A stretch of 64,000 bases of DNA from Candidatus Poribacteria bacterium. Lineage in GTDB: Bacteria > Poribacteria > WGA-4E > WGA-3G. The translations under genes were made by a program, and so were the position numbers. Positions 8,252 through 11,765 of the stretch are shown here, one piece after another (the stretch's first letter is position 1; every line of letters begins with the position of its first letter). The notes below the pieces were generated by a model that had not been told where the DNA came from, ran no database searches, and worked only from the letters and a program-made list of their open reading frames with translations. The stretch lies in NCBI GenBank assembly GCA_965205015.1, contig OZ242029.1, positions 3,168,001 to 3,232,000 on the forward strand, in the 5' to 3' direction.

Positions 8252-8569
8252 ATGCAAAAATTCCAACCGACTCGCATTGAAAGAGGCAGTACAAGTTTAG
8301 AAATCCAATGGAAAGATTCACATCACAGTGAGTTGTCCTACCGCTTCCTCCGACAAAAATGTCCATGTGCCCGTTGCGAGGCAACACGTTCCGGAAAAGA
8401 TCCTTTTCGCATTCTACCCTCTGATGATTTTTTTGAAAACCTACGGCTTGTGGACATTCAACGCGTCGGACGCTATGCCGTGAGATTGATATGGAACGAT
8501 GGACACCGCACCGGAATTTATACGTTCCAATTTTTGCGTGAGTTGCGTGAAAACACACCTGAAACTTAG
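8252..8569 (+). CDS. DUF971 / gamma-butyrobetaine hydroxylase-like N-terminal domain protein
   Basis: LEIQWKDSH, LRQKCPCARC and VGRYAVRLIWNDGHRTGIYTFQFLR. Confidence 0.88.
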   Translation: MQKFQPTRIERGSTSLEIQWKDSHHSELSYRFLRQKCPCARCEATRSGKDPFRILPSDDFFENLRLVDIQRVGRYAVRLIWNDGHRTGIYTFQFLRELRENTPET

Positions 8570-8655
8570 GTTTCATTTGCGGCGTGTTGTGAATTTAAAA
8601 AAAGAGGTGAGGTCCAACCTCGCTAACGAGAGAACCCTAAGAGCTCTGTTTTGCG

Positions 8656-9225
8656 TCATTCTGATAATAATCGCGAGACGAGATAGCAGTTGGGGGTCTT
8701 CTGGGTAGCTCCCAGCTCTGTGCTAAGATTCTGACACACTTTCCAATAGCGATCGTAACTGAGTGGACGGAAGCGGCGACGTTTTCCAATGAAGGTTTTG
8801 TGACAACAGGCTAATTCATTGCTGCTATGAATCGGATATCCCCAGACACGACAGATGACGGGACGGTGTTCGTAAACACTACAGACCCCACCGATTAACA
8901 TGGGACATTCACCTTCAGGTGTGCCTTTTATGGCGCCAATGGCTTCCATGCCAGCATCGGGCATTATATTTTGAGCATCATAGCCGTGCGCCTTCAATTT
9001 TCTGATGCTCTGTTCCGCTTTTCGGCGAATGTGTGAACGGATTTCAGCAGGAAGTGCTTCCAATCCGACCTTTAAGTCGCGAGCCTCGACCTCACTTATC
9101 GCCATAGTTGCGGTGTTTTGACAGCAGGAAAAGCAGGTAGATGGGCAGGGCACACCCCCCGATTCTTCACGCAAACGTTCGATGTCGCGCTGAATCTCAT
9201 CAAGGAGTTCATGGTATGCTTTCAT
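8656..9225 (-). CDS. YkgJ/FliB-family cysteine-cluster (Fe-S/Zn) protein
   Basis: CPSTCFSCC, CPML...CSVYEHRPVICRVWG. Confidence 0.88.
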   Translation of the reverse strand: MKAYHELLDEIQRDIERLREESGGVPCPSTCFSCCQNTATMAISEVEARDLKVGLEALPAEIRSHIRRKAEQSIRKLKAHGYDAQNIMPDAGMEAIGAIKGTPEGECPMLIGGVCSVYEHRPVICRVWGYPIHSSNELACCHKTFIGKRRRFRPLSYDRYWKVCQNLSTELGATQKTPNCYLVSRLLSE

Positions 9226-9233
9226 TGTAGCAC

Positions 9234-10196
9234 CTAATCTATCGTAAAACTATACACAGCATGCCTAAAAATAACAACTTTGGCACCGTTAGCTAAAATG
9301 AGCTTAATCTCATAAGGACTGACCCAATCTATACTGCCCCGAAAGACCTCTCCCTCACGGAGTGTAATCTCAATTGACGTTCCATTTTTTCGGGCGAGTC
9401 GAGCCGCTTTGGTATCAAGTTCAGGGGCTTGAACGTCAGCGGTGAGTTGTGTCAATTCCTGTGCCTTCACGGCAGCATCGATCTCAACGGATGCCTGAAC
9501 CCTCTCTGCATCAATGTCTTTATAGCAGTATTTAACATCCGTTTTGGCGATGTGCTGTTCGCGCCCGTTGCTATTGAGGGTCAAACTGGAGAGCGTCATT
9601 TCAAGGACAGTAGCGGGCAGTTGTACATGATTATACAACGCAAAAAACATGGATGTTTCAAAATTAATCTGTTTAAGGATATAGAGATCACCAAAGCTGA
9701 GTTGCTTTGAAGCGGAGTCCTGCGTCTCTTGTGTTGGTACTGCCGAAGCGTTAAGATCCGTCGTCAAAGCACGTTGATTGCGGGGTGGTTTTGCTGCCGG
9801 TCTCAGCGGTGCTACGGATGCATCATGGTCTCGGCGATTCCGATTCGGCTTTGGTTTGTCGGCATCATGATCAGACACAGCCCCCGTCTCATCACTGATA
9901 AATTGGCCCTGTCCCTGCCCTGGAAACCCGGCGTAACCGCGCGGAATAATTGCCTTCCCTTGCCGTAGCCATCGGCGTTCCGTCGGTGTCAACAAGACTT
10001 CGACATTTTGGGCAACGAGCCCCTTTTCACCTTCAACAATGCTGTACTTTACGCGCTGTCCGACACGGAGTTCCTCGTATTCGGGTTGCTTAATAGCAGA
10101 ACTATGTAAAAAGACATCCGCGTCACTGCTATCTTGCGCGATGAATCCGAAGCCTTTATCGAAATTGTAGTACTTAATCCGTCCTGTAGGCATCAT
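9234..10196 (-). CDS. Cold-shock domain fused to two Hfq/Sm-like domains
   Basis: aa 3-67 form a CSD (GRIKYYNFDKGFGFI, DVFLHSS). aa ~260-320 are Hfq-like (ARKNGTSIEITLREGEVFRGSIDWVSPYEIKL...VIFRHAV). aa ~166-226 are a more degenerate Hfq-like copy. Confidence 0.75.
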   Translation of the reverse strand: MMPTGRIKYYNFDKGFGFIAQDSSDADVFLHSSAIKQPEYEELRVGQRVKYSIVEGEKGLVAQNVEVLLTPTERRWLRQGKAIIPRGYAGFPGQGQGQFISDETGAVSDHDADKPKPNRNRRDHDASVAPLRPAAKPPRNQRALTTDLNASAVPTQETQDSASKQLSFGDLYILKQINFETSMFFALYNHVQLPATVLEMTLSSLTLNSNGREQHIAKTDVKYCYKDIDAERVQASVEIDAAVKAQELTQLTADVQAPELDTKAARLARKNGTSIEITLREGEVFRGSIDWVSPYEIKLILANGAKVVIFRHAVYSFTID

Positions 10197-10475
10197 ATGC
10201 TCCTGTGGTCTGGTCCCTTTTCAGGAAGAGGACGTTAACCCTTCGCGTTCCTATGCGAGCATTCCTTATTTACGGTTTTTCTTGACACAACATCTCTATC
10301 CTGTATACAATAGAACGGGTCTCATCTTTTTTCGAAACCAATTCCATCCGACAACAGTGAGAAGAGAGATAGATTGCCAAGGTATTTGTATATTAAATCA
10401 TAATTCGACACATTTGTCAAGTATCAACTATGCGGCTACGGATAGTCTGCTCGCAGCCTTTAAAGGAGACCTTGT

Positions 10476-11765
10476 ATGGAAACCACCGATCTGACCCATC
10501 ACATTCAATCTATTCGCCTTGTTGATACACACGAACACATGAGGCGTGAAGCAGAATGGGTTGAAAACGGACCTGATATCCTCCAAGACCTATTCGGAAA
10601 TTATGTGCCTGCCGACCTGGTAACAGCCGGTGCCTCCCCAGAAGCGATGCACAACCTGATGGACGCTTCTCAGGGCATCGCATCACGGTTTGAAGGGATT
10701 CGAGACGCGTGGGAAGCGACACAGTTTACTGGGTATGGCGAGGCAGTCAGCCTCATCGCAAAACACATCTATGGACTTGACGAACTAACAGGCGATGGGC
10801 TTGCCGGTACCGATTCTCTAAAGACGCTTCGCGCGCCCGGCAAACGTTATCACATTTTACACGACATCGCGAACCTTGACCATATTCAAACGGATGATTT
10901 CAGTTGGCAATGTACCCCGGACACATCCGGTCCCGATTTTTTCCTTTATGATCTCTCATGGGCAACATTCTGTAACGGACAGGTTGATCCGAGTGCTATC
11001 CATGCAGAGACGGGTATTGCGGTCAACGACCTTGCGACCCTCAAAACGGCTATGGCAGCGATTTTCGCCAAGCACGCCCCTTGTGCTATCGCTGTAAAAT
11101 CGCAACACGCTTATAATCGAACGCTCGATTGGATTGAAAGGAGCGATGCTGAGGCGTCTACTGCGCTCAATGCTGTGCTCACAAAACCGGCTGCAGCAGT
11201 TGATGAAGCCACGAGGCTCTGTCTTGGCGATTGGTGTTGGGCGCGAGGCGTTGAACTCACGATTGAACACAATCTCCCTTTCAAGATTCACACCGGTTAT
11301 TATGCGGGCAACGATCGGATGCCGGTGCGACGCATCCCTGCTGGCAACATGTGTGCGCTCTTCGCTCGTTATCTTGACGCGAAGTTTGTATTGATGCACA
11401 TCGCATACCCTTATAACGACGAGTTGGTCGCACTTGCCAAGCATTATCGTAATATTTGGGTTGACTTCTGCTGGGCGTGGAGCATCGATCCGTATAGTTC
11501 GCGTGATTTCCTCCGTCGGTGCATCCATGCGGTCCCGTCAAATAAATTGTTCGCCTTCGGCGGCGATACAGGGTGGCCCACGAGTGCGATGGCGTATGCG
11601 ATTCAAGCGCGAAACGAAATTCGACGCGCCCTTGAAGCCGAGATTGCGGACGGTTACCTCACTGAAAAACAGGCAATGGCGTTCGCGACCCGAATTATGA
11701 ATACGAACCAGTATGACTGTTTCGATATAAGCGGTACGCGCTCGAACATCGCGAAAGCGGCCTGA
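10476..11765 (+). CDS. Amidohydrolase-superfamily metal-dependent hydrolase
   Basis: VDTHEH, KIHTG, LMHIAYPY and FGGD motifs; SD AAGGAG. Confidence 0.88.
   Translation: METTDLTHHIQSIRLVDTHEHMRREAEWVENGPDILQDLFGNYVPADLVTAGASPEAMHNLMDASQGIASRFEGIRDAWEATQFTGYGEAVSLIAKHIYGLDELTGDGLAGTDSLKTLRAPGKRYHILHDIANLDHIQTDDFSWQCTPDTSGPDFFLYDLSWATFCNGQVDPSAIHAETGIAVNDLATLKTAMAAIFAKHAPCAIAVKSQHAYNRTLDWIERSDAEASTALNAVLTKPAAAVDEATRLCLGDWCWARGVELTIEHNLPFKIHTGYYAGNDRMPVRRIPAGNMCALFARYLDAKFVLMHIAYPYNDELVALAKHYRNIWVDFCWAWSIDPYSSRDFLRRCIHAVPSNKLFAFGGDTGWPTSAMAYAIQARNEIRRALEAEIADGYLTEKQAMAFATRIMNTNQYDCFDISGTRSNIAKAA

Follow-up and report, generated by a model that had tools for sequence, protein, structure and literature searches.

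Among the general RNA chaperones of bacteria, Hfq and the cold-shock proteins (Csp) are the two best known. As a rule each is a small protein of its own, and the solved structures of bacterial Hfq are closed homo-oligomeric rings (hexamers). Here we describe a gene of sponge-associated Candidatus Poribacteria (GTDB lineage Bacteria; Poribacteria; WGA-4E; WGA-3G) whose product carries a cold-shock domain (CSD) and two tandem units predicted to have the Sm fold of Hfq on a single chain. The gene occupies positions 9234-10196, minus strand, of a 64,000-nucleotide stretch of contig OZ242029.1 (assembly GCA_965205015.1, positions 3,168,001 to 3,232,000 of the forward strand), to which we refer as the window and to which all coordinates refer unless a locus is named. 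We refer to the product as the fusion protein and to its doubled Sm part as the module. At a probability of roughly 0.7, our reading is that Poribacteria conserve it as a core protein and that its two kinds of domain, joined on one chain, bind single-stranded nucleic acid, RNA being the likeliest.

Each half of this arrangement has a partial precedent. In 2002, Sun, Zhulin and Wartell (Nucleic Acids Res 30:3662) reportedly noted Hfq motifs occurring twice within one polypeptide in a few Alphaproteobacteria; those tandem proteins are said to have no cold-shock domain and to have received no biochemical follow-up. Modular Sm and Hfq proteins include the zinc-finger-Hfq of Thermococcus plasmids and Pyrobaculum SmAP3, which consists of an Sm domain with a C-terminal domain (PMC3710371). 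In the available portion of that source, these two proteins resemble the fusion protein in joining an Sm or Hfq domain to an N- or C-terminal nucleic-acid-binding partner; they differ in that the partner here is a CSD and the Sm part is doubled, and that portion contains no mention of a CSD fusion or of a doubled Hfq. The sequence-only reading of this DNA, which preceded our analysis, knew of no description of this architecture, and none turned up in our search either: neither a CSD-Hfq fusion nor this tandem module was described in the literature searched, which comprised titles and the beginnings of abstracts, with supplementary files outside its scope. We regard the CSD-double-Hfq architecture as a variant related to Hfq and Csp proteins, modular Sm fusions being already known.

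The gene and its N-terminal cold-shock domain

The open reading frame (ORF) list and its translation give a frame of 320 amino acids that starts at an ATG and ends in a stop codon at 9234-9236. The sequence-only reading had proposed a gene at this position without naming a strand; the gene is real, lies on the minus strand, is conserved and is architecturally unusual. An AGGAG motif at 10200-10204 stands 3 nucleotides upstream of the first ATG and 6 nucleotides upstream of a second ATG at 10193 (minus strand), which would yield a product of 319 residues. Because a 100%-identical database protein is 319 residues long, as are the orthologues in the databases, the second ATG is the likelier start, and the true product is probably the 319-residue form.

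Residues 4-67 (9996-10187, minus strand) form the cold-shock domain, with the motifs KGFGFI and VFLH. The Pfam CSD family (PF00313) matches residues 4-66 with 71 bits against a gathering cut-off of 27 (expect value, E, 7.8e-20), and a comparison with proteins of solved structure pairs the N-terminus with CspA and CspB (E ≤2.8e-13). In the full-length structural model, built from 42 sequences, the domain folds as a five-stranded barrel (strands at residues 4-11, 16-21, 27-31, 48-55 and 60-67) with a predicted local distance difference test score (pLDDT) above 90 across most of its length. RNP1 (KGFGFI, residues 14-19) and RNP2 (VFLH, residues 28-31) lie on adjacent strands, as located from the translation and the model. 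These results agree with the sequence-only reading, which had called an N-terminal CSD from its two RNP motifs. As in CspA, CspB, CspD and CspE, the N-terminal 67 residues make up a full CSD with both RNP motifs; the Csp proteins differ in being free-standing, at about 70 residues. None of the NCBIfam equivalog models for named Csp proteins (CspA/C/D/E/G) was reached, the best score being 68 bits against cut-offs of 115-152. Since the scores fall far below every such cut-off (for CspD, 68 against 115), the fusion protein is not an orthologue of any named Csp.

The CSD is followed by a nearly invariant segment (residues 69-99; 9900-9992, minus strand), in which a short helix, at residues 71-78 of the full-length model, precedes a Gly/Pro/aromatic motif. 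Across 66 sequences, residues 69-86 are the most conserved part of the protein, with a majority frequency of 0.99, compared with 0.95 for the CSD, 0.55 for residues 87-165, 0.90 for the first Sm unit, 0.70 for the connector between the units and 0.83 for the second unit; residue by residue, conservation stays high to about residue 99. A similar segment also occurs in distant CSD-bearing relatives (P0122, P0126, P0127 and P0128), and it may act as a docking or autoregulatory peptide.

Residues 100-162 (9711-9899, minus strand) constitute a variable, disordered linker that is Pro-rich, polar and net neutral; pLDDT is below 50 for residues 87-162 of the full-length model. The sequence-only reading had described a linker of about 95 residues as basic and Pro-rich. 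The Pro-rich, disordered character stands for part of that region, but the region starts with the nearly invariant segment, and it is not basic: residues 87-162 contain 9 Lys and Arg, 10 Asp and Glu and 8 Pro, with an isoelectric point (pI) of 6.1. By contrast, the region ahead of the module is strongly basic in many distant relatives, with pI values of 10-12.

Two units with the predicted fold of Hfq

We modeled residues 160-320 with AlphaFold2 from 36 aligned sequences. The module model has a pLDDT of 94.6 and a predicted template modeling score (pTM) of 0.89, and an alpha-beta5 pattern is present in it twice. Unit 1 (residues 168-226; 9519-9695, minus strand) has, in module numbering, a predicted helix at 9-19 and strands at 24-28, 33-41, 45-50, 53-58 and 62-67, that is, the fold of Hfq with none of the Hfq motifs. 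Unit 2 (residues 262-319; 9240-9413, minus strand), the Hfq-family domain, has a helix at 103-112 and strands at 116-120, 124-133, 137-142, 147-151 and 155-160. Between them lies a connector (residues 227-261; 9414-9518, minus strand) of two short helices and a loop (helices at 68-77 and 82-86 of the module), where the pLDDT, taken by block, is lowest at 83. On this model, both units are predicted to have the Sm (Hfq) fold of a helix and five bent strands.

Fold searches with the module model were topped by Hfq. Foldseek against the PDB returned Hfq in its best six matches (1kq2, 4nl3, 3hfo, 4noy and 4nl2; E about 3e-4, target template modeling scores 0.75-0.92) and in most of the matches shown, the seventh being a Pyrobaculum virus protein that was poorly aligned (root-mean-square deviation, rmsd, 13.5). 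VIA-align placed whole Hfq chains onto residues 4-70 of the model, which correspond to unit 1, with Z scores of 7.0-7.8. Caulobacter Hfq 6gwk, for example, aligned over 63 of 63 residues at an rmsd of 1.2 A (Z 7.8). All 50 matches shown were Hfq, and unit 1, as modeled, overlays complete Hfq chains at an rmsd of about 1 A. A wide VIA-align search, independent of Foldseek, ranked 48,161 representative chains and gave all of the first seven places to Hfq (Z 7.1-7.8); in it unit 2 (residues 99-161 of the model) aligned to Sm proteins such as SmAP3 (1m5q, Z 5.1) and Gemin6 (Z 4.5). No solved chain spanned both units in these fold searches. The sequence-only reading had proposed a CSD and two tandem Hfq/Sm-like domains on one chain and had made the proposal depend on whether residues 166-320 model as Sm folds. 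They model as two alpha-beta5 units with Hfq as the top fold matches, and together with the Pfam CSD match this bears out the proposed architecture.

Sequence similarity of the two units to Hfq

Judged by sequence at the family level, unit 2 is an Hfq homologue. A profile of the module, made from 10 sequences, gave 47 matches among PDB sequences at E ≤10, all of which fall on unit 2. Hfq or Hfq-like chains account for 39 of them, the strongest being Caulobacter Hfq 6gwk at E 2.3e-8, and NusA accounts for the remaining eight (E 0.035-0.086); unit 1 received no sequence match in this search. In three sets of family members, the Pfam Hfq family was found in 21 of 31, 9 of 10 and 13 of 14, with a best E of 3.5e-8 in the 31-member set; some members score above the cut-off, at 33.4 bits. 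In the single sequence of the fusion protein, residues 268-318 match Hfq_1 (PF21979; 21.2 bits, E 3.3e-4) and Hfq (PF17209; 15.9 bits, E 0.0098), and a search of the sequences of solved structures paired residues 268-315 with MJ1435, an Hfq-like protein of archaea (E 0.0015-0.002). MJ1435 (2qtx, 5dy9), Hfq_1 and Hfq_rel_Cyano (NF047718, E 4.4e-4) are the best single-sequence matches of unit 2; they differ in being single-domain proteins of about 60-70 residues, and the fusion protein scores under the cut-offs of all three models.

The conserved columns of unit 2 agree with the claim of the sequence-only reading that the C-terminal unit follows the Hfq pattern. Compared with Hfq (PF17209; 6gwk and Staphylococcus aureus 1kq1/1kq2), unit 2 aligns over the full core of helix and five strands. 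The Sm1 glycine pair consists of G282, which is invariant, and G287, which like W291, H312 and A313 is nearly so; Y295 occupies the position of the pocket aromatic residue, and the Sm2 motif reads F310-R311-H312-A313-V314 in place of Y-K-H-A-I, with Lys replaced by Arg. Assuming the residue roles of Escherichia coli Hfq, we take unit 2 to keep most of the uridine-binding proximal pocket, with the Y-K-H triad present as F310-R311-H312, and, from the alignment to 6gwk, to keep the basic rim in part (R269 and K270).

The two units also resemble each other. When unit 1 was compared with unit 2 by hhalign, 50 columns aligned in the structural register (probability 71%, E 3.7e-5), which lends modest support to their having arisen by internal duplication. 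In this register K218 of unit 1, which is nearly invariant, stands opposite R311 of unit 2, and we take it to be the one pocket lysine that unit 1 has kept. The sequence-only reading had called the first unit similar in layout to the second but degenerate. The shared layout is upheld by the alpha-beta5 pattern and the hhalign register, and the Hfq motifs are indeed lost; decay is not what the conservation indicates, however, since unit 1 is more conserved than unit 2 (0.90 against 0.83).

A family within and beyond Poribacteria

A word-index search with the fusion protein returned 393 proteins, of which the 120 listed are 312-323 residues long and 74-100% identical. The named records among these 120 belong to Candidatus Poribacteria, save one filed under the sponge Geodia barretti. 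Database labels of the orthologues are limited to 'cold shock domain-containing' or 'hypothetical', and many carry a precomputed PF21979 call. Full-length orthologues were found in 65 Poribacteria species genomes, at 55-86% identity.

More distant relatives share the module rather than the whole chain. In a search of representatives clustered at 50% identity, at least 31 among the 150 listed matches cover the C-terminal part (from about residues 108-193 to about residue 320). Many of these lack a CSD, some being stand-alone proteins of 152-204 residues (P0152, P0156, P0159, P0167 and P0215) and others carrying different additions. Besides the 21 with Pfam Hfq, the 31 aligned members include 15 with Hfq_1, 12 with CSD, four with a C-terminal HTH_3, and one each with HEAT and DnaJ_C. 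The many relatives without a CSD and the other fusions indicate that residues 163-320 are a two-part conserved module with an existence of its own. Matches to the module profile, one to six per genome, were present in 80 of the 81 genomes that we sampled in the phylum; a second copy was not found within the 64-kb window. A word-index search with stand-alone members returned 19 unnamed metagenome proteins.

Stand-alone two-unit paralogues without a CSD occur at L067:1468-2010 (minus strand), L072:1180-1659 (plus strand) and L068:1465-1944 (minus strand). They are 180 and 159 residues long, and their second unit, with 28.6 and 25.3 bits, attains or comes close to the cut-off of Pfam Hfq. Such paralogues could form mixed assemblies with the fusion protein. 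In many members without a CSD, a short conserved Trp motif, (T/Q)-x-(V/I/L)-W-(T/R)-P, opens the chain, and a disordered stretch that is strongly basic (pI 10-12) and rich in Pro comes next, as seen in the alignment of 31 members and in ORFs of L081, L084, L085 and L086; in P0127 and P0128 the Trp motif is placed after the cold-shock domain.

We also considered membership in the family of FljA, the repressor of phase-1 flagellin, which acts on fliC mRNA. In a language-model search for look-alikes, clusters of PF03614 (FljA) with 158-179 residues were nearest both to the module (0.90) and to a stand-alone relative (0.94). Profile tests did not support membership: the fusion protein has no match to PF03614 (cut-off 24 bits) at E ≤1, weak matches occur in one of 10 relatives (E 0.069) and two of 14 stand-alone relatives (best E 0.017), and a scan of five Poribacteria genomes gave two chance-level matches (E 0.4-0.5, at most 12.1 bits). 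In P0193, residues 78-119, which belong to unit 2, align weakly to positions 19-60 of the 170 in PF03614, out of the two-unit register. Taken with the language-model result, this weak alignment hints at a possible Hfq-like character of the N-terminal part of FljA.

Ordinary hfq genes in Poribacteria

The sequence-only reading had suggested checking whether the genome has a canonical hfq. We made this check on the genomes of relatives, five of them reached through their loci and 81 sampled from the phylum. In the five complete Poribacteria genomes, every Pfam Hfq match at E ≤0.003 lies in a CSD fusion or in a tandem paralogue of 159-180 residues, so that no short single-domain hfq frame was found among matches at this threshold; controls were detected, and four further matches with E of 0.02-0.95 were left out of the assignment.

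Among the 81 sampled genomes, Pfam Hfq matches above the cut-off occur in frames of 80-104 residues in four (G007, G009, G073 and G078). G014 has one above-cut-off match in a 128-residue frame with an internal TGA. G007 has three short frames (92-135 residues) that match Pfam Hfq and G009 has two, opposite to what the other genomes show. A strong module match is lacking in three genomes, namely G007 and G009 (best E about 1e-6) and G011 (no match). Short hfq frames are thus found mainly in two genomes that lack a strong tandem module. This complementary pattern (n = 2) fits a replacement of Hfq by the tandem form, and the fusion protein may stand in for the ordinary Hfq that Poribacteria genomes appear to lack.

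The module inside large proteins

Five very long module-bearing open frames were scanned. Three encode proteins of 1255-1402 residues in which an N-terminal two-unit module is followed by a SACS/HATPase region (L089:685-4665, minus strand; L090:3934-7701, plus strand; L091:524-4732, minus strand). Those of L089 and L091, the two of the three that were scanned with PADLOC, match its TmtA (Tiamat) models at E down to 2.9e-62. Each of the three giants adjoins an ORF of 1027-1053 residues on the same strand (L089:4733-7834, L090:984-4067 and L091:4773-7934), and the two neighbors that were scanned match DrmD-like SNF2 helicase models at E of about 1e-113 to 1e-115. Giant and neighbor together look like a defense-type gene pair with a double-Sm head.

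The other two frames combine the module with different enzymes. At L092:1697-4489 (plus strand), a type IV restriction-like protein of 930 residues carries GmrSD_N (residues 8-256), the module (about residues 712-860) and a C-terminal CSD (residues 863-926), which repeats the pairing of module and CSD in an order reversed relative to the fusion protein. At L093:1666-5757 (plus strand), a protein of 1363 residues carries a UvrD helicase, GIY-YIG, GrpE, the module (about residues 909-1043) and three S1 domains. Because the module is repeatedly paired with single-strand binders of the oligonucleotide/oligosaccharide-binding (OB) fold, CSD and S1, these proteins support a role in nucleic-acid binding.

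Assembly, ligand and competing explanations

Several findings weigh against reading the fusion protein as an Hfq-like chaperone that works as a ring. Taken alone, its sequence is below the Pfam Hfq cut-offs (15.9 and 21.2 bits against 27) and scores 14.7 bits against 61.7 for TIGR02383, every NCBIfam Hfq model staying under its cut-off. The fold is a prediction, made from 36 aligned sequences, and the tool rates structural Z scores of 7-8 (<8) as middling for small domains; for that reason we built the argument for an Hfq fold on rank, full-domain coverage and an rmsd of about 1 A. The CSD is not docked on the module in the full-length model (pLDDT 79, pTM 0.54). Whereas Hfq has one Sm unit per chain, the fusion protein has two, and its unit 1 has lost the Hfq motifs: both Sm1 glycines are missing (H190 and A195 stand in their place), as is the Sm2 His (A-K-T-D-V), and S203 stands opposite Y295, in a column (Y203) that is nearly invariant as Tyr in the wider family. 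The fusion protein also differs from Hfq in having an N-terminal CSD and long linker in place of the C-terminal tail of Hfq. In unit 2, the alignment to 6gwk puts an Asp (D261) at the position of the Hfq pocket Gln, and the distal-face positions are not conserved; the distal residues that we take to bind adenine in Hfq are not kept. Since the pocket Gln is replaced by Asp and the distal face is not conserved, any RNA specificity need not resemble that of Hfq. Finally, the module is embedded in nuclease, helicase and ATPase proteins of 900-1400 residues, and 4 of 31 relatives have a C-terminal HTH_3. It behaves as a promiscuous building block in the phylum, alone or in giants, which fits poorly with a dedicated chaperone ring. 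Given the enzyme fusions and the HTH_3 members, the ligand of the module could be DNA, and a ring is not required.

By analogy with Hfq, the module may assemble into a trimeric ring of six Sm units, a proposal to which we give a little less than even odds. The sequence-only reading had suggested such a trimer as an alternating pseudo-hexameric ring that could carry three tethered CSDs and couple RNA melting to annealing. A model of three copies of residues 160-320 (score 0.00, mark 0.42), made without controls, speaks neither for nor against such a ring. In place of a ring, the two Sm units could form a compact, monomeric double barrel, comparable to tandem Tudor, KOW or WYL proteins, that serves as a portable binding or ligand-sensing module; the fusion protein would then be a beads-on-a-string binder without an Hfq-like annealing platform. 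The pTM of 0.89 for the single chain predicts fixed packing of the two units without partners, although neighbors in a ring would likewise show such packing. A ring is also less obviously needed where the module sits at the N-terminus or in the interior of TmtA-like/SACS, GmrSD_N and UvrD proteins of 930-1402 residues. WYL sensors (DriD, BrxR, CapW and PafBC) are among the fold matches of the module at Z 4.3-5.0, but Hfq outranks all WYL chains (Z 7.1-7.8 against at most 5.0), and no WYL family appeared in the Pfam scans. Unit 2 is moreover, by its sequence, a homologue of Hfq, whose solved structures are rings. We consider the monomeric double barrel, the main rival reading, possible but unlikely.

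The enzyme fusions bear on the ligand as well. DNA might be the main target of the fusion protein, which would then be a nucleoid-associated or transcription-linked factor, in keeping with the C-terminal HTH_3 in 4 of 31 family members and with the joining of the module to the DNA enzymes GmrSD_N and UvrD with GIY-YIG. CSDs bind single-stranded DNA, and Hfq binds DNA too, the E. coli Hfq-dsDNA structure 5uk7 being among the fold matches. The fusion protein itself, however, has no helix-turn-helix domain in the Pfam scan, the conserved residues of unit 2 are those of what we take to be the uridine-binding pocket of Hfq, and the UvrD fusion couples the module with three RNA-binding S1 domains. 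A mainly DNA-directed role therefore appears improbable to us, and RNA remains the preferred ligand in our reading of the fusion protein.

Locus context

The genomic setting bears on one further explanation, that the gene belongs to an anti-phage defense system, for example as a CSD effector or sensor. Its CSD matches the PADLOC model CSD_V (E 1e-9), it also scores weakly against the NCBIfam model of the retron Se72 effector (34.8 bits, cut-off 82), and the module recurs in the TmtA-like and type IV restriction-like proteins described above. Yet in each of the 65 full-length loci the gene is found at the same conserved position on the chromosome and is not part of a variable island, no PADLOC model beyond the generic CSD matches the fusion protein, and tblastn found no match to the module in plasmid or phage collections. 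We therefore hold a defense function of this gene to be very improbable and retain the reading as a core nucleic-acid-binding protein. The other neighbors in the window that recur in the 66 loci are RecJ (28 loci), a ferredoxin (53), a GBBH-like_N protein (59), an amidohydrolase (60) and an IF-2B family protein (59), and the locus looks like a core chromosomal region.

Immediately downstream, 8 nucleotides past the stop codon of the fusion gene, lies a CxxCxxCC gene of 189 codons (8656-9225, minus strand; PF03692, E 1.2e-4, 23.1 bits against a cut-off of 23), PF03692 being a putative zinc- or iron-chelating family. This gene directly follows the fusion gene in 65 of 66 Poribacteria loci, the 66th locus ending inside the fusion gene, and adjoins none of nine distant family members from metagenomes. 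We set it aside as a functional clue, the distribution being one of lineage synteny; within Poribacteria only, it is a probable operon partner.

Scans for promoters and terminators yielded sites at consensus level only, and no Rfam family was found in 8500-10600. A weak terminator-like hairpin with a T run follows the second gene (8604-8621, minus strand; consensus scan only). The best promoter-like site, at 10282-10311 (plus strand; TTGACA, 18 nucleotides, TACAAT; 11 of 12 positions), lies in the divergent intergenic space and faces the amidohydrolase gene at 10476, away from the fusion gene.

Contigs of two metatranscriptome libraries overlie close relatives of the gene (85% likeness), one contig of 2131 nucleotides covering both the fusion gene and its downstream neighbor. 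The RNA-library runs share 5% of sampled words, and the contigs come from related strains. Such contigs tell no level, strand or ends, DNA carry-over is possible, and uncovered parts in run X1 carry no meaning; the cover is weakly suggestive, compatible with expression without proving it.

Proposed mode of action and significance

The fusion protein is most likely an RNA chaperone or regulator, as we infer from its domains and their relatives. We propose that the N-terminal cold-shock domain, an OB fold, would capture or melt RNA and hold single strands open. The nearly invariant 30-residue segment and the flexible linker of about 60-76 residues would tether the CSD to the module, a rigid Sm platform of 155 residues to which the CSD would hand its RNA. 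This platform would bind RNA through the Hfq-like pocket of unit 2 and through a lineage-specific, strongly conserved surface of unit 1, and the protein would act as the Hfq-like RNA chaperone or regulator of the phylum.

A more ambitious joint scenario, which we hold to be doubtful as a whole, would run as follows. The double Hfq would have replaced single-domain Hfq, and its trimer would form a six-unit ring with two alternating kinds of specialized faces or pockets. In the core housekeeping form, three tethered CSDs would couple RNA melting with matching on a single particle, and the module would have been recruited within the phylum as the nucleic-acid-sensing head of TmtA-like, GmrSD-like and UvrD-like defense-type enzymes.

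The fusion protein represents a natural fusion of two general types of RNA chaperone, in which the Hfq part is duplicated, asymmetric and conserved across an uncultivated phylum. If a ring forms, it would be a bacterial counterpart of the eukaryotic move from homomeric to heteromeric Sm rings, and the protein would offer a test case for strand melting and annealing coupled on one particle. The two-unit module, a putative nucleic-acid-binding building block that has no name as yet and is reused widely, helps annotate proteins of Poribacteria and of metagenomes that are now labeled only 'cold shock domain-containing' or 'hypothetical'.

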